A stretch of 62,625 nucleotides of DNA, the filler included, from Collodictyon triciliatum (Eukaryota), in the NCBI GenBank assembly GCA_043381765.1. It is 4 parts of 4 records of this genome, joined end to end, with 100 filler letters (N's around TTAATTAATTAA, not from the genome) between each part and the next. Parts side by side here need not be neighbours in the genome. Positions count along the whole stretch, not along the records: positions 39,238 to 56,630 come from JBHJMP010001071.1; 3 more parts are not named here. One strand, written 5' to 3'. Position 1 is the stretch's first letter, and each line of letters opens with the position of its first letter. Of the stretch, positions 6,983 through 57,953 are shown piece by piece. The position numbers and the translations under genes were made by a program. Below the pieces are notes generated by a model. That model saw only the letters and a program-made list of their open reading frames with translations. It ran no database searches and was not told the origin of the DNA.

Positions 6983-9763
6983 TCATCCGTGCAAACCCAG
7001 AGCATACATCGTGATTGTGTGCGCATCTCGGCTGGATACATAAAGGCGACCGCCCGGCTGCAAAGAGACACCCCACGGATGGTTGCAAGTGATATATTTG
7101 ACTACCTTCCCGTCTGCTGCGTACATGTGGATGCGATTGTCATTGTACGAGGCCACAAGGAAGCTTCCGTTGGGAGCCGCACAAAGAGTCGCATAGTCAC
7201 GGACCGCGGCAACGTGAACACAGCGGACGAGGCTTCCATGTGTAGTGAGAAAGTGAACCTTAGAACCAGCAAAGCCGATGACGCCGATTGTATTGTCACT
7301 CGCCACCATGAGCCCATCGCACTGGGTCAAATCCGGCACTGAGCCAGAGTTTACAACAAATCGAACAAAGACTCCTCGCGGGTCAAACATCTGGATGCGA
7401 TTGTTTCCAGAGTCGCTTACAAAGAGATTCCCCTCAGTGTCAAATGCCAAATGATGCGGTTTGTTGAACTCACCAGGGTTGCTTCCTTTTTGCCCGATAG
7501 TCTTTATGTGCACAAACTCATCTGTCATGAGCTGGACTCGGTGGTTGGCTCCTTCGGACACGGCCACGATACCTTGTGGAGATATTGCAATGCCAATCGG
7601 ATAATTGAACTGCATCTTTCCCACACCCTTTTCACCCACCGATTTGATGTGGTCGAGCTGTGGTGAAAGCTGCTGTATTCTAAAGTTCATGCCATCGGCC
7701 ACAAAGACGGCCCCGGTGATTGGGTGTCTGGCGAGGCCGAAAGGGCACATGAATTGTTGAGGCCCGCGACCAAGCTTGCCGATTGTACGAACGACGTGGT
7801 GCTGGTCTCTGCTTCGGCTTGCATCATGCAAGGGAAGCGAAGTGACAATATCGCCCGAGGGTAATGCAGGAGAAGGCGACTGTGGTGGGCCAATCGCCCG
7901 CACCAGACTGGGACTTGAGGGCTGAGACACTTGTCTGGCAGGGCTCTGGGGAGGAAATGGCGTTTGCGCTTGAGGTCGTGCAAATGCATCCGACACTGGG
8001 CGGACTGACTGAACTACATTTGGAGTGCTTTGCTGCAAATTAGAGTCTGTATGGTGACTAACAAATATTTTGATGTAATAGAGAATAAAGTCCATCGTTT
8101 TGTGGGCATCGTTCACACAGGGTGGCGCTTGTATTGTTCTCATCGGTCGAGAGAGGTGATTTTGGGCGATGGAGTCGAGGATGTCATATTCAATATTTTG
8201 CGGTGCTGTTTGCAGGTCGTTGCTTTGGAAGGGCTTTGTTTGGTTTCTCTCATTAGTGATGAAGTCGATTTGTTCGATGGCCATTTGAATGCTTTCTTTT
8301 TCGTTTGCGACGGCTCTTAGGTGGTGGTTGTATCCATCTTCTAACTAGAGGTAGGCGTGATAATACTAATTACATCAAGTGTATTGCAGATTTAGGAATA
8401 CTATTTAATCAGCAGCCAGCGATTATCTATGTCATCATTTTTCTTTACCAAAGAAGATATACTTGTTGCATTACGGTAGCTTCCACTCGGCCAAGAAGCT
8501 CCCTGATTGTGTTTAGCTTTTCTGACATTGCCTCCTTTAGCTTGGTCACTTTTGTCACTTCCTAATATATTTTGCATCAGGTTGTAATTTTTTATTTTAT
8601 TTTTTTTGCTCGCACTAACGCATGGAATAAGACATATGATTTACTGGCAAAATCACATATCAAAAGAAATAGAAATAGAAATAGAACAAAGATGATAAAA
8701 TCAAACAAACATGCTCCAAAAGAACTTGTGCCCGTTCATCCACGGCGAGCATATCGCGCTTCAGTCTCATCGCTCTTTCTGCAAAACTATCTACAAATCC
8801 AGACGAGGATACTGAAGACGACCGCATACATTCGTTTCCAAGCACAGATTCTGCTATTTTTTCAGATTGCTGTGAACTACTCGACTCTGCGTTTTCTGAA
8901 ACAGCCACTTTACGCCCCTCCAATCGGATATACTTTGCGCGGCTTTCATTCCCACTTCCGCTCCCTGTGTTGGACTCGGTCACTTCGGAGAGATTTTCAT
9001 CCACCCTATGGGTTCATAAAACAAATCAAATCAAATCAAATCAAATCAAATCAAATAATATAATATAATATAAAACAAGTAAAGCATGAACCAAATAAAA
9101 CAGAAATATACATATACGTACATATATATGTAAAAGTCAGTATGCACGATAAGTAAACATTTAAATAAAAAGAATAAAGAAAAAGAATAAAGAAAAAGAA
9201 TAAAGAAAAAGAATAAAGAAAAAGAATAAAGAAAAAGAATAAAGAAAAAGAATAAAGAAAAAGAATAAAGAATAAAGAATAAAGAAAAAGAATAAAGAAT
9301 AAAGAAAAAGAATAAAGAATAAAGAAAAGAAAAAGAAAAAGAAAAAGAAAAAGAAAAAGAAAAAGAAAAGAAAAGAGGGAAGGACAATGGTGTTGATACC
9401 AATAATAAAACAACGCGCTACATAGTTTTGAGGGCGGTGTATCGAAAAGGCTTCCGGCCTTTCTGCATGATATAGACAACAGCAAGAGACTCACGGCGTT
9501 TGGCTCTCGCACAACGGCATATAAAGAGTCTTGAGGTCTGATCCAGCCGCAGTCACAATGACGCGACAGACTGAACAAAAGAGCGCGGCAGACGACGAAA
9601 CAAAACTCAGGCGTTCGGGAGAGAGACACGCCGTGCAACAAACGTGTCCGCATGACAGTTGCTTCCTGACCAGAGTTCGGCCGCACTCTCGTCTGCACAT
9701 TCCGCATTGGCGCAGGTCGCTCATCACGCAGCGCGGGGGAGAAGGACAGAGAAGCCGCTTCAT
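6983..9763 (-). CDS. RING-HC + coiled-coil + NHL-repeat protein (TRIM-NHL-like E3 ligase, no B-box seen)
   Basis: First exon (9495-9763, alternative ATG at 9724) encodes CGMC..CGHVCCTAC..CSVC. Helical exons follow at about 8710-9006, 8478-8562 and from about 8344. The final exon has NHL repeats (QFNYPIGIAIS..VSEGANHRVQ, EFNKPHHLAFD..VSDSGNNRIQMF) and ends at TGA 6983. Confidence 0.85.
9165..9375 (-). repeat. Compound purine-rich (plus strand) microsatellite in the RING-NHL intron
   Basis: AAAGAAT/AAAAAG tandem units. Confidence 0.9.
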
Positions 9764-10173: not shown

Positions 10174-12108
10174 TCACGAGTTAATGCTCCTTTGGCTCAC
10201 TGGTGCTACTGGGCGGTCTTCTCCAAAGATAAGGATTCTGTAAGAAATGAATTAGTGACATATGGCGCACACAGAAACAGACACAGACGATGGTGCATTG
10301 GGGCACAATACGGTTCAGTACCGATAGTTTTGGCGGAGCTTCTTATTGTTGCCATATATGATGCTGTTGAAGAAGCCGAAAGTCGGGGAGAAGATGGAAT
10401 GGATAAGATAAAGCCAGAACTATCCAAGGTTGGTTTATCAAAGTGGAGTATTGTTGTTTTTAATAAATATTCTGCTCTTCGCGAGCACATGCGTTATACT
10501 TTACTGTGTTAAAAGTTTTGGGAAAGTAAGTATGATAAACCCGAGACAAATTGAAAAAAAAACCTGCGGGTGGTCGGGATCGATGATGTTCTGGATGCGA
10601 TTGATAACAGCCCAAATCCAACAAAACACCCATGAAATCACTACGCTTAGTAGCCTTCGGCTGATTTCGTCTCGAAAGCGGTCCATATTGGCAGATTTTG
10701 GTGTGTATCCATCTCCATTCCCGGACTATTTTAATTCATCTTTAGTTGTTCGTAAACTTCTTTTCTTTTCTTCAAATCCTAGCTGATTTTAAAATAATTT
10801 TTTTGTCTATATATTCAAGTTGTACTTCTGGTAAAACAGATAAATGTATCGATATTCTGAAGAAAGAAAAAAAAAAGGCAAAAGGTGATGGAATGAAAAT
10901 GCAACTCTTTACTTGAAGCTTTAAAAGCTCTCGGTGGCAGATTGCGTAGATGCCCAGGTTGATAATTAGAATTGCAATCATGGGCCCGTAGAAGAAGGCA
11001 AAGCGAAATGGACTTTCAGGGTCTTCAATCCAGCACCTAGTAACAACGAATAGAGGGAATTCATTCAGACATGATAAAAAAAAATGAGGTGAAGATACAA
11101 ATTTAATTACTGAACGAAAAAAAAAAAAAAAAGAAGCACCAAACACCAGCTTCACCAAAGCTTTCGAGGGATAAAAGAATGATTAGAAACAATCCAGGAA
11201 TTCCCCATGCAACCATATGAAAGTATCTTTCGTAATCTTCAAGCTAGACCATACAGACCGGAAGAAATGTGTTAATTGCAAAATCTGGACAGCGCTCCTG
11301 AAAATTGGCGCATCAAATGGGATACGTTCATTATTTACACTCAGATAAAAACCACATGGTGAAAAAATAAGATTGGTTGAAGTACATACATGAACTAAAG
11401 GCCTTGTAATCATAAAGTATGCCGCCAGGGCTATGAAGAATGTCCATATGAAAGCCGAGAGATAAAAGAATTGAATGCCCGCTCCTGCCACAAAAGTATT
11501 CGCCATTGTGTGTGTCATGAATCAAAAGTGATAAAGAGAGAAAAGAGAGAGAAAAGAGAGAGAAAAGAGAGAGAAAAGAGAGAGAAAAGAGAGAGAAAAG
11601 AGAGAGAAAAGAGAGAGAAAAGAGAGAGAAAAGANNNNNNNNNNNNNNNNNNNNNNNNNNNNNNNNNNNNNNNNNNNNNNNNNNNNNNNNNNNNNNNNNN
11701 NNNNNNNNNNNNNNNNNNNNNNNNNNNNNNNNNNNNNNNNNNNNAGAGAGAAAAAGAGAGAAAAAGAGAGAAAAAGAGAGAAAAAGAGAGAAAAAGAGAG
11801 AAAAAGAGAGAAAAAGAGAGAAAAAGAGAGAAAAAGAGAGAAAAACCTTGCAAAACGCAAGCAAAGTGCTCTCCAGGATTTGCTGTGTCGAAGCTTGATC
11901 CAGCAGCAAAAACAGACATCAGAGTAGAAAAGGAGCCAAACAAGTCTGTAATGGACTGGATAAAAACCAGCTTCAAGGCGAATGATCGCAACGCCGGGAA
12001 CCGCACATACGAGAATATCACGAATAAGCAGCCGATGATGGACAGGCAGCATGCGGTGAACGTGACAGACCGAATCGCTGTGGTTTCGTCACGGGAAAAG
12101 CTTGTCAT
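10174..12108 (-). CDS. cAMP receptor / GCR1-like 7TM GPCR, multi-exon
   Basis: Spliced peptides: MTSFSRDE..CCLSIIGCLFVIFSYVRFPALRSFALKLVFIQSITD, CVLQG, IQFFYLSAFIWTFFIA, YFHMVAWG, CWIEDP..RFAFFYGP, VFCWIWAVINRI, GFFNSIIYG. These are typical Dicty_CAR/GCR1 signatures. Stop is TGA 10174. An upstream in-frame ATG lies at 12135. Confidence 0.88.
11533..11845. repeat. GA-rich microsatellite flanking a 110-N gap (11635-11744), intronic in the GPCR gene
   Basis: AAAAGAGAGAG-type tandem units on both sides of the N run. Confidence 0.9.
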
Positions 12109-24695: not shown

Positions 24696-27600
24696 CTACC
24701 GTGGAGAGGCTAGGACTGGAAAGAAATCAGTGATAGCGAGCTGGTCAGGTGGGCGTCCCAACTGGTTGATTGGTTGCGTGGGTAGCAGGGGTTGGATATG
24801 CTGTGGGAGATATCTTNNNNNNNNNNNNNNNNNNNNNNNNNNNNNNNNNNNNNNNNNNNNTTAATTAATTAANNNNNNNNNNNNNNNNNNNNNNNNNNNN
24901 NNNNNNNNNNNNNNNNAAAAAAATGAAACGTAGCGAACACAACACTTGCTATTCACATGCGAGTTTCGTAATTAATTCATTTCATTTTCTGCATAATTGT
25001 GTACATAGTGTTTTGCTGGTAAGATAACGATGGTATTCATACTCGTTGGGCCCTCATTTCCGTCATTTCCGTTTGTTTTGTGTTGCGGTCCTCCAGCTGC
25101 GTGAATTTCTTCAAGTCCGCGTCCTTCTTCTCCAAGTCGAGCAAAAGCTTATCTACGTTTAGATTTTTCCACTTTTCAAACTGTGCCAGTTTGCTTTCCA
25201 TCTCAGTCAGTTGGTGAGTCTTGGATACCTTCCATTGGATGAGGCTGTTTTTTGTGCGTTGCTGTGTTGCAAAATGAGTGTTTGTGGCGATGAATGATCG
25301 AAATGTCATTGTGTTTCAATCTTTGTACTATTTGACTTGGCAACGATTTTTTCCCTTTATTCGAATCAAAGTTTACTTGGCAAAGATATTAGAATGATTT
25401 ATAAATTATGAATCTGAATAACAACTCAAAAAATGACATGCCTGTTGCTCTAATTCTTTTCTCAAGGTCTCAATATCCTGTTCGCGACTGCTCAGTGCCC
25501 GTTGTGAGGCGGCGAGCTGCTGCCTCAAAATACTTTCCTTCTGCTCCATTTCATCGCGAGTCTCCCAGAGGGTCTTATTAATCATACTTTTCTCGTCTTC
25601 CAACTTTCTTAACTAAAGTCCGAGTGTAAGGAGGAAATTATATTTACTAGTAGACCAAGAATGATACATATATAAACATTAAAAAAAAGTTTCAAAAAAA
25701 AAAAGCATTTGTATAGAATCTGATTAGCAACGTCTCATGAAGCGTATAGCTTTGCTTTTTCTGGGATACAACCAAAGTGCTTGTAAATTTTTATAAGAGC
25801 TTAAGCGAACGTTTCCGAATGAAATTTGTGCATTTCGTACCTTTTTAATGTAAGAACTCTGTGATGAAATGTTGCGAAGACGATGAAGCGATTTCAGTTT
25901 CAAAACCTTTGAATTATTATTATCATTATAATTATTATATTTTATTTTAAAAAAATGTATTACTTTGATTTGAACCAAAAAGAATAAATTCAAATGACTA
26001 AACTAAATGAAGGTAGCATGGTAATGCCACACGATAGATATATACAATATGATGACAAATGAAATATAAGTGGAAAAAAAGTTTATATCGTTCGAACTGA
26101 CAAGATTGTCAAGTGCCATTTTATCTGTGCGAAGATCATTTAATTCATCCTCGACATGAATCATTTTCAGTGTCTTTCTCTTCAACTCCATCGGCGTGCT
26201 TCCACTCTGCACCATTTTCTTCAGAGCATCTTTTTTCGCATCAAACAGGTTCGACATAATATCCTGCTGTAATTGAGAACGATATTCTATGGTGGAAGTT
26301 TAATGTTAAGCTATATGCAACAGCATATTGCATGTATGAAGATGCCGATTTTGCCAGCTCAACATCATAGTAGAAATTAAAATAATGCTGCTATTACATT
26401 CATATAATTGTGATCTAAATTACCTTTAAACTTCGTTTTCACCTCAATCGCCTCTACAGTAAGTTGCCTGACCAGATCATCATACTCTCTCTTGATTTTT
26501 TCCCTCACAATGGATTCTTGCCGTTTCAGCTCTTCTTCAGACCTCGAAAGCTTTCGGTTGAGTGTGTCTATCTCAAAGATAAGGTCATATCCTTTATCAG
26601 CCACTTCTGTTTGGATTTTTCGGTAGGATTCCTTTGTAGGGAAATAGAAACAAAAAGTAATTAACGCTTTCATTTGTAAAATGCACATTAAAAAAAATTA
26701 ATAATTAATTTATTGATAACTCAAGAGTTATGAAATGAACAAGCGTACTTTTAAAAAAAATTATCTTAAACATGTTCCTACATACCTTTTTGTCTTGCTC
26801 TCTTAGATATTCAGAATATCTTAAGTTACGCTCACATGTGTACAAAAGGTGCTGGAGATGCTTTACTTGAGACAGTTGGCTCTTTCCTTCCTCAGCGAGG
26901 CGTGCTGTGGTCCAATCCATAAGGTCTTTAGACATGTGCGACAACTAGGTCATAGTTCGAGTGATATATTGAGTTCAGTATGTGGTATGATCAGTAAACG
27001 AAAGAAAAGCATACTTTGTTCACTTATATAGATAAAAATATCAGAATGTTCCCTAGCCATCGCATGAAAGATACTAAAAATATTGGGAAAAAATACACTG
27101 CTTCTAAGGTGTGATTCTGACATGATGAATCCTCTGTCGCCTGTTTCTGTTCGAGTTTCTTGCACATTCAACTGGAAAATTCGTTTTGGTTAACATGTGA
27201 CTTGTACAAAGAAGTGTCAATAAAGCTAAAGCTTAGTGACATATGAATATGCAAGTTTTCCTTTCTTTTCTAGTTTAAAGCGTCAAAAAATACATTAAGG
27301 AGGGAATAGACAAAGTGTAAGAAGATAAAATGGGTATACCATTAGACGGTAGACAAAATCAGAAAATATTCTCTGTTTGGCAGCATAGTCTTCAAGATTG
27401 ACAGGGTCAGTCAGGTGAGATTCTGACATGGCGACAATTTGGTCCGTTTCTGCAATCAAATGACCAAATATGACAGAGACATCATTCGTTTGTGCATGGA
27501 TAAGCAATTTATCTACTTCTTGCTTCAATATTTCCACTTGGAGTTGGCGAATAAGCTAGGCAGCAATATAAATGAGTTTCTAATATCAAAACTGCAACAT

Positions 27601-38797: not shown

Positions 38798-46993
<8,196 letters not shown>

Positions 46994-47904
46994 CGCACGC
47001 GACTAACGGGCTGCGAAACACTGGAATATTGAAAATAAGTAATTAAACCACAACTTTTATTGAACAAAAAAAACTATGATGGGGTCTCATCGCCCGAGAC
47101 GGTTGGTTTCGTCCCTCGAGGTATTTCAAGTATGATTAAAGTCGTGTTCTGGTTTGGCAAATAAGAAGCGAAGCAGCAGTTGACAGTGGCGACGATCCTG
47201 AACTATAATCCTTTGGGCTGAAACTTGCTCCTTCTGTAAGGAAATCTATGTACGGACATGGGAGGGTTCCTTCTGGTTTCCCCTCTCAACCTCCTTTTCT
47301 TTCTTTTTCTTTTCTTTCTTCGGTGTGTGTCCGAAGACGACAGCTTCACGCTTCACCAAACACAAACGACTGTCAAAAAAAACTCTGATCACACGCGAAC
47401 CCAGCTGATGGTAAACAGCAGTTATAAAAAGAGCCTCTCGCGCCCAACGAAACTTCTGCTGCAAACAAATAGCTCTTTCGTGCGGGAGGCGATGCGGATT
47501 TATAGCCAAAAGTCAAAGCAAGGCAGCCTTCAAGCCGCGGTTCGGTGGCGAATGTGATACACAGGCAATGACAGAGTTACCATTCGTGATCGAACGCAGC
47601 CGAAAACTCAGAACAGTTGATTCGAACGCGTCTGAATATTCCAGATTTGCAGAACGGTTTTGTGTATATATGGCATCTTGTAGCAGTGTAAAAGGGTGCG
47701 AGACGCTGTTTGGCTGCGAGGAAAACCAAACCCTGAAAAGAAAAAAAAAAGAAGAGCGAAAATTGAAAGATGCCTCTCCTGATTGACAACCAATCCATAT
47801 CTTTGTTTTGTTATATTCCTACTTTTTTTTTTTTGGAAAGTCTTATCTTTCTTTCCCTGTAATTTTATAGCATCTACCGGCAGCGTGTAGGAAGGAGTGG
47901 TGTG

Positions 47905-50900
47905 TCAGTCTGATAGTGGGTCGTATGGTCGTGGCTTTCCCAAGTTTTTCATCATAGCGAGTGTCCCCTGGATCGAATAATTTCGCAAGAGCGGGGCCAA
48001 TAAAGAAGCAGACGAATAATAGAGTATCCAGATAGAGTTCATTCCAATTAGAAATGCAGTAACCCACGCCTTGGAGGCAAGTAGAGTCGACAAAAGGGCC
48101 AAGAAGAAAGAGACAAAGATGACGTACAAACTGGATACCTCCATTTCATTCTCGATTTTCGAGTTGTATGGCTCGTACTGTATTTGTAACCATATCGAGC
48201 CCTGGGGATGAGACAAGTTTATAGATGAATATAACTCAGTGTATATTATCGATATTTGTAACACAAACCAACCTGTATAAGAATGACTAGGAGAAGGTAA
48301 AAAACAGATCGACTAGTGTAAGGAATGACACTCAGCACAAAAGAGAAAGAGAGACGTCGAGCAATTATGACGAACTCCCAATACTTGAATCCCTAGGAAA
48401 AATATATCATCGCAATTAAAGTGAATGTTAAAATAAACCGTGATACGCCATAATTAGGTACCTCTCTATATGGCAGGTAAAGGAATCCATATCGTGCCCT
48501 TGGCTCATGTCCAGGGTCCTCTGGGATTTTTCTCACTTTCCACCAAACAAAAGCTGGTAGTCCAAGAATAAAAAAAATAAAGACAGGAGTGGATATAGCG
48601 ATGAGGCTCTGGTGTTCCGAGCTAGATGGACTACATCGAATCCAGGGTTCATAATTCAGATACCAAGTTTCTTCTCCATCATCATAGACAGTGCACCCGA
48701 AAACACCAAAGATTTCTCTCGCAACGGAGTAGTAAATGAAGAACAAAAGGTTCAAGGTGACAAAAATGGCCTGTTTTTAAATTACAAAAATGTGAGTAAA
48801 GCTGCCTATAACGTATCATAGATAAAATCATATAATTGCGTCTCATTTTAACCTTGTTTTGCTTGTGTCCATATCCAAAATAGTAAGTAACCAATCCAAT
48901 AATGATGAAAAAAGGTATTCTTGCAAAGCTAAACAATAGTAAGTTAAGTGAACTATTTATTCCCAGGGCGCATTGAAGATTGGGAAATTGAATAGAGCTG
49001 ACAGATGATGATACATCGATAAAGGCGTTTGTATCTGTTGACTCAAAAGAACTAGATGAAACGATTGACAGTGTTTGCATGTGGAACATAATGATCCTCA
49101 GATCAGCTAGATATGTAATGGATGTAGCATTAGTATATGTTAAGATAATCTAAATAATGACTATTAATTGAATAAAGGGATAAATTTTGATTAATTGATG
49201 GATATTTACCAGATTTTGTTGTTTCCGACATGTATAGATATATTATGAAAGCAAAAAATCCCATAGATCCAAGAATAAAGGTTGCATAGATAACTCCTTC
49301 ATAGCATCTAACACACGATCTCCCTTGTCGCCCATAGCCATCTAGACATTTTGAACATGCATGCCCTTCATATCCAACTTCGCAAAAATGGACTATCTCA
49401 ACAGTGGTATTCGAATTCGAGGCTTTTTCTGGTATCCATGTATTACACGATGTCGGTTTTGGACAGGCCACAATGAACTTCACTGCGGTCACATTTGGAG
49501 TAGCATAGCAGTACATCAATGAAGTTCCATCGAGACATTCACATTCGCTCGGGCACTGGACACAATTGTCTCCAAATCCAAAATATCCAGGTAGACATTT
49601 GCAAAGTTCAAAATCATAGTACTTTGGATTTAGATCTACTAATGTCTCGACCAATCCATTCCTGGAAACAATCAAAGGACACAAATAATTTTCCCATTCG
49701 TCCTTCAAATTGAATGTTGAGGTGTATTCCATGAATCCAGGCAAAAAATTCGCCCTTCCATGATTCAAGGATGTTACATTCATGCCCATATATTCTAGCT
49801 TCGTAAACTGACGGTAAGATTCAGGAATGCTTCCAACAATGGGATTTCCAGAAAGGTCGAGTGATCTCCAGAGTAATATATTGGGGAGTTCTCCGAGTTT
49901 TGTAATGTTATTCCCCCTCAAACTTACTGTTCTCACATTCATTAGCGCATTAAATATCTTCCAGTTGAATTCTCCATAAACTTGGTTATTATCAAGTAAG
50001 ACGGAATCATAAGACCAACCGAACTGCCCTGTGCCTGTGACAAAAAGAGCACTGATATCGCTAGAAAAAGAATTATATCGTAAATCCAACTCCACCAACA
50101 TGGGCAAGTTCCACAACATAAATGGTATATCTCCTGAAAAATTATTGTGAGATATAGCAAAGAATTTCAACTGGTAGGTTTTCTGAAGGAATTTCGGTAA
50201 TGTACCATTAAACTTGTTCCTTGATAAATTGATATGTTGGATTAATGGAATGTGCCAGTCAGGGTTGATTGGCCCACTAATTTGGTTTTCAGCAATATCC
50301 AATCTGGTGAGCATTGGTATATCGATATTAAGTGATGTATCGGTAAATCCATTTCGGAAAACGACAATCTCTTTCAAACTGGCGCAGTTCACAAAGTTTG
50401 GAATGACGCCTTCAATTTGATTGTCAGATGCCGAGAAATATTCAATATTGGGAGTATGACTTAAATTTGGAAGCGTGCCTGTGGTTTATCGACATTAGAT
50501 GCTTGAATATGTTTGCAAAAGTCATATTTTTAAGCCTCCCAGTGGCAATCATGCAAATGATAGCTGGTAAAAAGAGGTCTAAATCTCTTATCGGAAAAAA
50601 ATCGAAAGAAATAGGAAAAAGTAAAGGAAAATGCAAGTATCACCTATCAATTTGTTGCTATCAACGCGAATGGCCAACATATTTGGAATGCCGGTGAAAT
50701 CTGGTATGGTAGCTAAAAATTGGATAAGCGATGAAGATTTGGAATGTGAAATGTTCAAATATAAATCACCTCTAAATTCGTTGTTACCAAGATAACACCT
50801 AAGCATATAAGGCATATTGCTAAAGTTTGGTATAGATCCTAAGGTTTTTCAAATCAGCTATTTTTTCACATTTCTTTTTGGCATATACACGATATGTCTC

Positions 50901-53112
50901 GTATCAAAGAAAATTTCAAATAAAAGCTTTAATAAAAGATTAAGTCTCCCAAGTTGTGCATATTAGTAGAAATAAGAATCGGTATTGTATCGAAAGCAAA
51001 AAAGAGAAAATATCCAATGGTGAATTTGAAGACCACCTTTTAATTTATTACCACTAAAATCAATCTCTAATACACTGAAAAGGTTCTTAAAGTCCGTAAT
51101 TGTTCCTATAATAATAAAATCATCACGAAAGAGTTCAAAGGCTATTCATAAACAGATTACTCACCGTCTAATTGGTTGATGTGAAGGTAAATAAACTTCG
51201 CATTTGGAATATTGTAGAAGTCAGGGATATTACCTTAAGTAAAAAAAAAGAGGATTAATTACTGTTTATAATCACATCTTTTTTAAATTTTTACTAACCA
51301 GTAAGTAAATTGTGAATCAGGTATATTAATTCAATATTCGGGATATTCTCAAAGTCAGGTATCCCTCCTAATAGTAAAACGAAGGATTTAGAATTAAATT
51401 GAAAAACATGAGGTGACTTGATTTATCCTTACCGGTGAGTTGATTTTCTGACAGATTAATGTTTTCAATGATAGGCATATTCCTGAAATTTGGAATTGTT
51501 CCTAGTGTGATATAGTGCAAGATTGGTGACTACTTTGTGATTTAGTTAAAGAGATCTAATTTCATTCAAACCAAAAATGTTACTCCCAAGAATTGAAAGT
51601 GATTTTGTGTTGGGCAATTTTGAAAAATCTGGTAGATTCCCTAAATTTTGGAACAGTTTTAGCTTCTAATGCACGCAATTGCAGTAAAATGAGGATTACC
51701 TGTAACTTTGTCACTTATACCAATCGAGATGCTTTTTATTAAAGATATTCCCACAAAATCTGGAATAGTCCCCTCTATATCATTTCCTTCAATATATAAA
51801 TCTTCAATCATGAATATTGCCTGAAAGTCTGGAATTGTCCCCCTAATACTGTTATAACCGATATTCAAATATGTTATATCTGGAAAGTAAAAGTCTGGTA
51901 GTTTTCCTGATATTGAGTTGTAACTGAAATCCAGGAATATTAAGAAAGATAGCCTCTCTAGTGTGACAGAAGCAACCTCCATATCACCGTAAAGATTATT
52001 ATTTGGTAATCGAATACCGATAACAGGGCATTCATTATTCTACAAATATAAAGGACAAAAAAAAATATGATTTGTAAATGCTAGCTTATCTTGGTTTCTA
52101 TTTTTATCTGATTGCGTGATATTAAAGTATGAAACTCACCAAGGCGTCTTTATTTGAACAATATTCACTGCAAAAAATTCCAAACCAATCACAAATACTA
52201 ACATTCGTATCATTCCATCCATTATACGAAAACCAATTGTTCCCATCCATTACTATGTAAAATTCGACAAGAGCTTCATATTGACTGGATAAGGTTCCAT
52301 TTCCTTCATTATTTTCATTTTTGATGGAAAATGACTGTTTTTTAGACCCCTGAAATTCCAACACATCAGCCTTTTCTTGGAAATACTCATCTTTGCTCAA
52401 TTCCTCGTGCCCTTTATTGCTCTTGTAGAATTTTTCCTCGTTGTAATAATAACTGCTGCAATCTTCGCGAAGCATATGTGATGAAGTAGTTCTTTCAAAA
52501 TGGTCTCTATTCTGTATCGAGCATGTATCCTCATAATGACTCAACAGAATGTGAAAGGCGTCCTCCATATTCATGCTCAATATTTGATCTTTCGTGAGTC
52601 GACATCTAGTCCTAGAAGTCAAATTTTCAGAGATTCATATACAAAACAATGCAAATAACTAACAAGAAGTATAGGTATAAATATCATTATAATTATAATA
52701 AAGTAGGGTTAGTAATAATAATAGTAATAGCAATAGCAATAGCAATAGTAATAGTAATAGTAATAGTAATAGTAATAGTAATAGCAATAGCAATAGCAAT
52801 AGCAATAGTAATAGTAATAGTAATAGTAATAGTAATAGTAATAGTAATAGTAATAGTAATAGTAATAGTAATAGTAATAGTAATAGTAATAGTAATAGTA
52901 ATAGTAATAGTAATAGTAATAGTAATAGTAATAGTAATAGTAATAGTAATAGTAATAGTAATAGTAATTATACAGAATATGAGCAAAAATTACTCTCCCG
53001 AAGCTGCAGATGACAGGGATGATGCCACAAGAAAATCAGTTGAAATTAATATGGCAATTAACAGCCAATATCTGGATAAAATACATGTTTCATTAAAAAT
53101 CCTCGCTATCAT
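47905..53112 (-). CDS. Receptor-like protein: signal peptide, plant-type LRRNT and many LRRs, Cys-rich EGF/furin-like region, multi-TM (about 7-8) C-terminal domain
   Basis: LRRNT: EALVEFY..W..GW..CDWFGIFC. LRRs follow the LxxLDxSxNxxxGxIPDF pattern. Cys-rich region: CKCLPGYFG..C..CP..C.C and CEVGYEGHACSKCLDGYGR..C..C. TM region contains FGCT, WYLNYEPWIRC, YGFLYLPY..YWEFVIIARR, YEPY..IEN.ME. Stop is TGA 47905. The first exon is tentative. Confidence 0.85.
52712..52968. repeat. (AGTAAT/AGCAAT)n hexamer microsatellite in the first intron of the LRR receptor
   Basis: Direct repeat. Confidence 0.95.
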
Positions 53113-56630: not shown

Positions 56631-56730
56631 NNNNNNNNNNNNNNNNNNNNNNNNNNNNNNNNNNNNNNNNNNNNTTAATTAATTAANNNNNNNNNNNNNN
56701 NNNNNNNNNNNNNNNNNNNNNNNNNNNNNN

Positions 56731-57506: not shown

Positions 57507-57953
57507 CTTGTTTTTTCTTTATTTTATTTTTTATTTTTCTGTCTCGTTACGTACATAACATTGTCAAAGACGAATGTGCAACAAATTATAATAATATAGT
57601 AATGCCTTTCCATCGGCATTCCTGCTCGCACCTTTTTAATCATCGGCACTAACACGGGAGAGATGCACAAGAAACACCACCCCTTTCGCCACCGTGTGAG
57701 AAATATATTTAGGACGCATTTTATTAATCCCGACTGCTCCTTCGTATGAAAGAATCTTTCGCATTCCGATGTCGAAGCGGACTATTTATTCCTTCACAGA
57801 GTCCACTGTGTGGCGGAGAAGAACTCTATATTGGGGCAGAATGATAGAAATGGACGAATGAATGCGATGAGTTCAGATGATAACGGGAAGCGCAAGTGGA
57901 AAGGAGAGGCAGACTATTCCTGTTCTTACGGGCGATTATCTTGATTAAAGTTG

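Follow-up and report, generated by a model that had tools for sequence, protein, structure and literature searches.

Are tandem exons that each encode a single leucine-rich repeat (LRR) a set of exchangeable cassettes, or are they ordinary parts of one gene? The question is raised by a locus of the flagellate Collodictyon triciliatum (assembly GCA_043381765.1, record JBHJMP010001071.1), which was analysed as part of a stretch of 62,625 nucleotides (nt), filler included, that joins four parts of the genome end to end and is called the window here. An LRR gene on the minus strand of the window contains seven consecutive exons (E1 to E7), all exactly 69 nt long. A preliminary description of this DNA had seen in them a modular array that might serve a diversifying, immune-like recognition system. 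Our preferred reading is more conservative: we regard the seven exons as ordinary and most likely constitutive coding exons, the product of an old tandem duplication, lying centrally in the LRR ectodomain of a protein that resembles a surface receptor. We give this reading a probability of roughly 0.65.

Each of the seven 69-nt segments (coordinates in Table 1) was preceded by AG, followed by GT and ended in the base G. The bordering introns were in phase 1, so that the codon opening the following unit is split 1+2. The split codon encoded Gly in six exons (GGG, GGA, GGA, GGT, GGA and GGA) and Ala (GCT) in E7 only. Translated in phase 1, each exon gave one LRR of 23 amino acids (aa) with the form G-x-I-P-D/N-F-x-N-x-P-N-x-x-x-L-x-L-x-x-N-x-L-x. 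The introns that separate the seven exons measured 70, 65, 65, 59, 198 and 57 nt, and the LRRs on either side of the array were located in long multi-repeat exons of 340 and 1269 nt. The geometry reported in the preliminary description was thus reproduced in full: the coordinates and splice dinucleotides were exact, the split Gly and Ala codons were as described, the translations agreed (including both peptides quoted there) and the long neighbouring exons were found. Its point that exons could be skipped, duplicated or swapped without a frameshift also holds, since a length of 69 nt and a final G in every exon mean that removal, repetition or exchange preserves both the frame and the Gly or Ala codon.

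As a chance control, both strands of the window were scanned for segments of 69 nt between AG and GT. There were 352 such segments, 144 of which were open in phase 1. A start matching x[ILVM][PT]x[FLYW] was present in eight segments, seven of them being the seven consecutive exons. In 20 mononucleotide shuffles of the window, zero to three scattered motif matches were obtained per shuffle.

The gene model was built by chaining open frames across canonical GT-AG sites. It comprises 14 exons from 52634 to 47905 (minus strand) and would encode 1188 aa. Each of the 13 introns is GT-AG with G at position −1, and GC content is 18–34% in the introns, versus 38% in the exons. Introns 2 to 10, nine in a row, are all in phase 1 and interrupt the same codon, so the 1269-nt exon 10 is symmetric as well. 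The splice sites are predictions, which are supported by their canonical form, by the unbroken 23-aa period and by colinearity with proteins of Diphylleia rotans derived from complementary DNA (cDNA). The predicted protein opens with an N-terminal region that contains a Cys motif and continues with an LRRNT_2 cap (Pfam, E = 1.2e-4; 22.7 bits versus a cutoff of 20.7), regular LRR units, irregular LRRs, a Cys-rich stalk and a multi-helix membrane domain. The 12 regular 23-aa units are distributed over exon 2 (three), the single-repeat exons (seven) and the start of exon 10 (two); exon 10 continues with irregular LRRs and a C-terminal cap, and it also encodes the Cys-rich stalk and the first of the membrane helices. 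Pfam matches to LRR_4, LRR_1 and LRR_8 exceeded the cutoff. No kinase, ROC or COR match was obtained with Pfam for the scanned exons or for the full-length Diphylleia homologues P0027 and P0154.

At the 5' end, exon 1 is adjoined by a short open reading frame (ORF) resembling a signal peptide, in a different frame. A mini-intron of 31 nt, far shorter than the other introns (57–198 nt), or a frameshift in the assembly would explain how the two are joined. The homologues from Diphylleia start with a signal peptide, which is followed by the same Cys-containing motif.

Table 1. Predicted exons of the LRR gene and the adjoining upstream reading frame, in window positions.
Feature	Position	Strand	Content and remarks
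Signal-peptide-like short ORF (MIFIPILLVSYLHCF...)	52619..52687	minus	immediately precedes exon 1; reading frame shifted by one base relative to it
Exon 1 (5' end open)	52140..52634	minus	N-terminal region and LRRNT cap (..CDWFGIFC..); predicted donor TTG/gtgagt
Exon 2, 340 nt	51700..52039	minus	cap LRR and three regular units, intron-free inside; Pfam LRR_1, E = 1.2e-8
E1, 69 nt	51572..51640	minus	one LRR (GNLPDFSKLPNTKSLSILGSNIF)
E2, 69 nt	51433..51501	minus	one LRR
E3, 69 nt	51299..51367	minus	one LRR
E4, 69 nt	51165..51233	minus	one LRR; nearest to E3 (14/23 aa)
E5, 69 nt	51037..51105	minus	one LRR; the intron after it is unusually long (198 nt)
E6, 69 nt	50770..50838	minus	one LRR; sole cover is an unspliced X1 contig
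E7, 69 nt	50644..50712	minus	one LRR, Ala as first codon; sole cover is an unspliced X1 contig
Exon 10, 1269 nt, phase 1-1	49210..50478	minus	Pfam LRR_4, LRR_1 and LRR_8; metagenome ORF P0001 begins exactly at its acceptor
Exon 11, membrane domain	48853..49106	minus	an X1 contig has a loose end at 48852, matching the predicted donor; Diphylleia P0028 breaks at the equivalent position
Exon 12, membrane domain	48462..48770	minus	extracellular hairpin, GFLY motif; next intron (69 nt) removed in X1/X9 contigs
Exon 13, membrane domain (YWE motif)	48273..48392	minus	introns on both sides spliced out in X1/X9 contigs
Exon 14, with stop codon 47905-47907	47905..48201	minus	C-terminus aligns with Diphylleia C-termini; spliced X1 contig ends at 47852

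Relatives of the gene were sought with the 451-aa open frame that contains exon 10. Plant receptor-like proteins matched at 23–36% identity over part of the length, and two ORFs from metagenomes were 45% and 59% identical. The best matches among longer proteins, far above the plant proteins, were two transcriptome proteins (E = 5.9e-118 and 2.6e-107), both from Diphylleia rotans, a collodictyonid of the CRuMs clade. Aligned end to end, the window protein shared 396/1143 positions with P0154 and 413/1131 with P0027 (35–37% identity) in the same domain order, and the alignment gaps in the LRR region were close to whole-unit (23-aa) lengths. Both EukProt transcripts have the 23-aa GxIPxF unit, the Cys pattern and the GFLY..YWE membrane motifs of the window protein; P0027 and P0154 contain 14 and 20–22 regular units, in contrast to its 12. 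When the C-terminal half of one Diphylleia protein was searched against 1.84 billion representatives, 576 matches with E ≤ 1e-30 were returned. Approximately 30 representatives (50% clustering) covered the LRR, Cys-rich and membrane parts, and all 22 named clusters that were looked up belonged to D. rotans. Judged from these sequence comparisons, the family is greatly expanded in D. rotans and has a distant member in the window organism. A set of 22 members (21 Diphylleia proteins and the window protein, full-length or longest) was used for comparisons of repeats; its proteins contained 7–23 regular units each. Metagenome runs from freshwater and the subsurface contained the window organism itself, at small word shares. 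Scans of metagenome contigs with the 451-aa exon and with alignment A1 yielded no related locus. Within the library searched, no paper linked Diphylleia rotans or Collodictyon to a description of LRR receptors; the one title returned concerned outer-arm dynein.

Diphylleia is represented by cDNA only, in which the exon layout is visible solely where introns are retained. The ORFs P0028 and P0147, which retain introns, break at two positions in the membrane domain that are shared with the window gene (introns 11 and 13). A further retained-intron ORF, P0155, has an intron at the Gly codon of an LRR boundary. In P0147, a single Trinity isoform, 12 aa are missing from exactly the LRR Gly opposite the E5/E6 junction of the window gene, as would be expected if an alternative acceptor lay 36 nt inside an LRR exon. 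The retained introns, at a repeat Gly and at the shared positions, indicate that the one-repeat-per-exon layout is probably old in the family, where it probably permitted repeats to be gained and lost in frame over evolution.

Evidence for transcription came from two sequencing runs, whose contigs were aligned to window positions 46810–52650. None of the runs listed is on record as RNA; X1 is a small run that was guessed to be RNA (share 0.19). In contigs of X1 and X9, the two 3' introns were removed as modelled (joints 48391–48461 and 48200–48272, bounded by CT..AC when read on the plus strand). Transcription and splicing at the 3' end are therefore shown for the gene or for a copy approximately 98% identical to it in a close relative. 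The cover by X1 began at the gene's 3' end and reached no further than 50906, a pattern that resembles 3'-biased RNA more than an even carry-over of DNA. Three odd joints (48565–48672, 48885–49054 and 49089–49574) had short sides or unclear content and were taken as pieces of a paralogue or of another organism.

The fold of the ectodomain was approached through a homologue. An AF2 model of P0148 with a mean predicted local distance difference test (pLDDT) score of 88.6, spanning the C-terminal LRRs of that protein and not the seven exons, matched the ectodomains of PSKR, RGFR1, BRI1 and FLS2 (Foldseek, E about 1e-9). On the basis of this model, the LRRNT_2 cap and the LRR solenoid, the protein is predicted to have a plant-type extracellular LRR ectodomain. 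The membrane domain, modelled from Diphylleia P0182/P0148 and equivalent to 47905–49300 in the window, folded with a pLDDT of 88.1. Pfam gave nothing credible for it, and Foldseek gave no match at E ≤ 1e-3 and no clear match to G-protein-coupled receptors (GPCRs). The best result of a wide VIA search was pannexin 1 (Z 8.6 over 83 residues), which is in the noise range for helical bundles, and a sequence search of the PDB returned designed 'Cake' proteins alone, aligned over 30 residues. Its language-model neighbours were uncharacterised membrane proteins of haptophytes and ciliates, some annotated as Ephrin_rec_like or TRP. The sole link to TRP/Flc-like proteins (PF06011) was a neighbour cluster in the Atlas, 12% of whose members carry PF06011; Pfam itself gave none.

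The frame-neutral geometry (69 nt, phase 1-1 and a final G in each exon) is what alternative skipping would need: up to 128 in-frame combinations, with varied LRR numbers and surfaces, could then arise from one gene. Several donors of the array deviate from the strong form (gtttga, gtggtc, gtgatt and gtgata), and the available text of PMC11378527 reports alternative splicing for brown-algal ROCO genes that have one LRR per exon. The 12-aa deletion in P0147 and the unspliced state of the region in the sole RNA-like contig, which could reflect regulated splicing, point the same way. However, none of 65 Trinity isoform ORFs from 19 Diphylleia clusters showed an insertion or deletion of 23n aa inside the LRR array; these ORFs differed by end truncations, retained introns and the one 12-aa deletion. 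The X1 and X9 contigs, which give the exons no spliced cover, contained no skipping junction. Symmetric one-repeat exons are also constitutive in many plant LRR kinases. We consider skipping of the seven exons to be quite improbable. New LRR combinations could equally be generated in the germline, by ongoing shuffling, duplication or conversion of exons among paralogues, as proposed for ROCO genes. The size of the family and the wide range of its unit numbers would suit such a process, as would 19 X1 contigs with 85–99% identity (3, 5, 7 and 4 by class), which suggest paralogues or alleles in a close relative. Yet near-identical units were absent from the 22 family proteins: among 58,211 unit pairs between proteins the maximum identity was 16/23, mostly at scaffold positions, and within proteins it was 18/23 across the family and 14/23 in the window protein. 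The seven exons had a mean mutual identity of 50% at the nt level (maximum 58%) and 36% at the aa level (maximum 61%, E3 and E4), and their identity to the units in the long exons was scarcely lower (46% nt, 29% aa). With splice signals trimmed, 0/78 intron pairs were similar at z > 3, and no exon-like relic was found in the introns. Diverged exons, mutually unrelated introns and the lack of relics together argue against a recent duplication of exon plus intron and against a shared 'introner' sequence. No paralogue was present in the window, and replacements between near-identical variants were not in excess in the regular units (14/3874 sites, compared with 37/9822 elsewhere), although these numbers are small. 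Ongoing shuffling in the germline is, in our judgement, a poor candidate with little probability. The proposal of a diversifying receptor system was thus borne out in its receptor-like part (LRRNT_2, plant-type LRRs and a large family with variable unit number) and found no support in its active diversification. True cassette exons in a CRuMs-type receptor repertoire, with repeat number tuned by both germline exon gain or loss and transcript skipping, deserve very little credence. If real, they would mean that a system for diversifying LRR recognition had been invented independently, with an intron phase of its own, and that dozens of its paralogues combine an LRR ectodomain resembling those of plants with a membrane domain whose fold is unassigned.

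A different objection concerns the origin of the introns. They might have been gained secondarily and in parallel at a recurring proto-splice site (..G/G..) of repeats that already existed, in which case the layout would be uninformative about exon duplication. Such gain would agree with the dissimilarity of the intron sequences, with unit starts in the long exons, where intronless units carry the same xxG/GGx, and with a unit orthology to Diphylleia that is not resolvable. It fits less well with a phase and codon common to nine consecutive introns. At least two introns at Gly codons of LRR boundaries were deduced in Diphylleia paralogues of 35–40% identity (P0155 and P0147), which suggests that the position is old in the family, and no introner-like sequence is common to the introns. 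We hold parallel gain to be unlikely.

According to the reading that we prefer, constitutive exons of ancient origin, each 69-nt exon would supply a single turn of an LRR solenoid of plant type. The protein would have, in this order, a signal peptide, an LRRNT cap, 12 regular repeats along with irregular LRRs, a stalk rich in Cys and a multi-pass membrane domain. The array would have originated by ancient tandem duplication of a one-repeat exon, and the repeats in the long exons would either have lost their introns or never have had them. Frame-neutral modularity would have acted over evolutionary time, giving the spread from 7 to 23 regular units in the family, and the units of the window gene would have diverged long ago. 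The protein may function as a receptor; speculatively, the concave face of the LRRs could bind an extracellular ligand and the membrane domain could perform a signal or transport step.

Several observations weigh against this reading. Constitutive use is argued from Trinity ORFs of a related species, which are blind to rare isoforms. In the X1 and X9 contigs none of the seven exons carried a joint, and 50906–51490 was uncovered. One contig of X1 (record 7; 50393–50906, 514 nt, nine differences, no gaps) was colinear with the genome over E6 and E7 and retained introns 9 and 8 and a portion of intron 7. Splicing across the seven exons is accordingly a matter of prediction, and it may be inefficient or regulated. 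Given the 3'-biased cover, the contig may be an unspliced precursor; regulated splicing or DNA carry-over may also account for it. Intron 8 (50713–50769, between E6 and E7) is 57 nt long, in frame and stop-free, and its retention alone would add 19 residues to the LRR array. Retention across the whole contig would give no protein, because intron 9 holds stops. Within E6 and E7 the contig differed by two synonymous changes and one non-synonymous change, too few to interpret. In the unit-by-unit comparison with Diphylleia no diagonal stood out, so stability of exon order is unsupported. Exon duplication and parallel intron gain at the recurring G/G site are indistinguishable here. The membrane domain matches no assignable fold or family, which makes the signalling step speculative, and the N-terminus of the model is ambiguous at the exon 1 join.

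Two candidates near these subjects were rejected. A faintly LRR-like peptide in the 198-nt intron had a best alignment to the seven exons of z −1.1 relative to shuffles, and a possible second LRR gene in the 62.6-kb window came down to one chance match at 57806–57880 (E 0.18); a motif scan of all six frames was negative.

Exon-like ORFs on the minus strand (39760–47100), downstream of the LRR gene, contained ..DISGFTKLS.. and ..IAGDALLVLF.., which we take to be class III nucleotidyl cyclase motifs, followed by the P-loop sequence GNHGSGKS. The P-loop ORF had weak matches to AAA_16 and nSTAND3 (E = 4e-4 and 7e-4, under the cutoff). These features suggest a gene for a soluble-adenylyl-cyclase-like cyclase combined with a STAND ATPase; single-exon searches of Pfam and the PDB left the cyclase part unconfirmed. 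The cyclase-like ORFs are assigned to a separate gene, because the LRR C-terminus aligns with the ends of its homologues and the spliced contig stops at 47852. Elsewhere in the window, an NHL-repeat beta-propeller protein was predicted at 6983–8344 on the minus strand (Pfam NHL, E 1e-20) and a fragment of a protein kinase domain at 1088–1546 on the plus strand (Pkinase, E 1.1e-22). Long microsatellites flank and interrupt the genes (52710–52968, 42313–42504, 45452–45616, 40635–40756 and 39300–39340); one of them, (TAGTAA)x43, lies next to the LRR gene on its upstream side. There are also purine-rich arrays of the AAAAAGAAG type and (AGAGATAG)x15, and similar purine/pyrimidine tracts recur over the window. 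Runs of N were located at 11635–11744 (110), 24817–24916, 39138–39237 and 56631–56730 (pairs of 44), mostly inside simple repeats. The 110-N run reflects a draft assembly with gaps.

Arrays with one LRR per exon are a textbook case of exon duplication. Plant LRR receptor-like kinases (LRR-RLKs) have a kinase after a single helix and repeats of 24 aa; the window family has a multi-pass membrane domain, no kinase, and repeats of 23 aa. Their ectodomains are nonetheless matched by the model of the homologue. The preliminary description had named plant kinases and brown-algal ROCO genes as precedents for the layout, and it is indeed published for both, albeit with 72-nt exons and phase 2 (available text of PMC3050792 and PMC11378527). 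In intron-rich LRR kinases of rice and other plants, phase-2 introns split the first Leu of xxLxLxx, and an origin of the exons by duplication has been proposed, according to the accessible part of PMC3050792. As far as these sources go, LRR-RLKs of the ERECTA, SERK and SYMRK type resemble the window gene in their symmetric short exons, each encoding one extracellular plant-type LRR, with an LRRNT cap ahead; the ERECTA/SERK type differs in having 72 nt, phase 2 and a split Leu, where the window gene has 69 nt, phase 1 and a split Gly of GxIPxF.

Brown-algal ROCO genes share with the window gene one LRR per exon and tandem symmetric exons of equal length. For their 72-bp phase-2 LRR exons, intense shuffling and alternative splicing are reported, and an immune-receptor repertoire is proposed, in the available portions of PMC3341825 and PMC11378527. 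As described there, the ROCO proteins are cytosolic GTPases with ROC-COR, whereas the window gene lacks ROC-COR and has 69-nt exons in phase 1. Similar exons in altered order or number, the mark of ROCO shuffling, were not seen in the 22 family proteins, mostly from Diphylleia.

Vertebrate glycoprotein-hormone receptors and LGRs combine an LRR ectodomain with a Cys-rich hinge and a multi-helix membrane domain. The window protein has the same order of LRRs, Cys-rich part and multi-pass domain, and it shares the one-repeat exons. In gonadotrophin receptors, the LRR exons contain about one repeat each and their introns are all in one phase, phase 2, as given in the available part of PMC11378527; the window gene differs from this group, as far as that source describes it, in its phase 1 and in the lack of a clear GPCR match.

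A length of 69 nt, phase 1 and a split Gly set the window gene apart from plants, brown algae and vertebrates alike, which argues for more than one origin of the layout. By its predicted exons and domains, the gene apparently belongs to neither the plant nor the ROCO families and would be a further, independent case of a known layout. It adds an example from a deep-branching, little-studied lineage of eukaryotes. What may matter more than the exons is the undescribed family itself, greatly expanded in Diphylleia, whose output domain resembles no recognised fold; its proteins, which combine LRRs with a Cys-rich stalk and a multi-pass membrane domain, are candidate surface receptors of a predatory flagellate.

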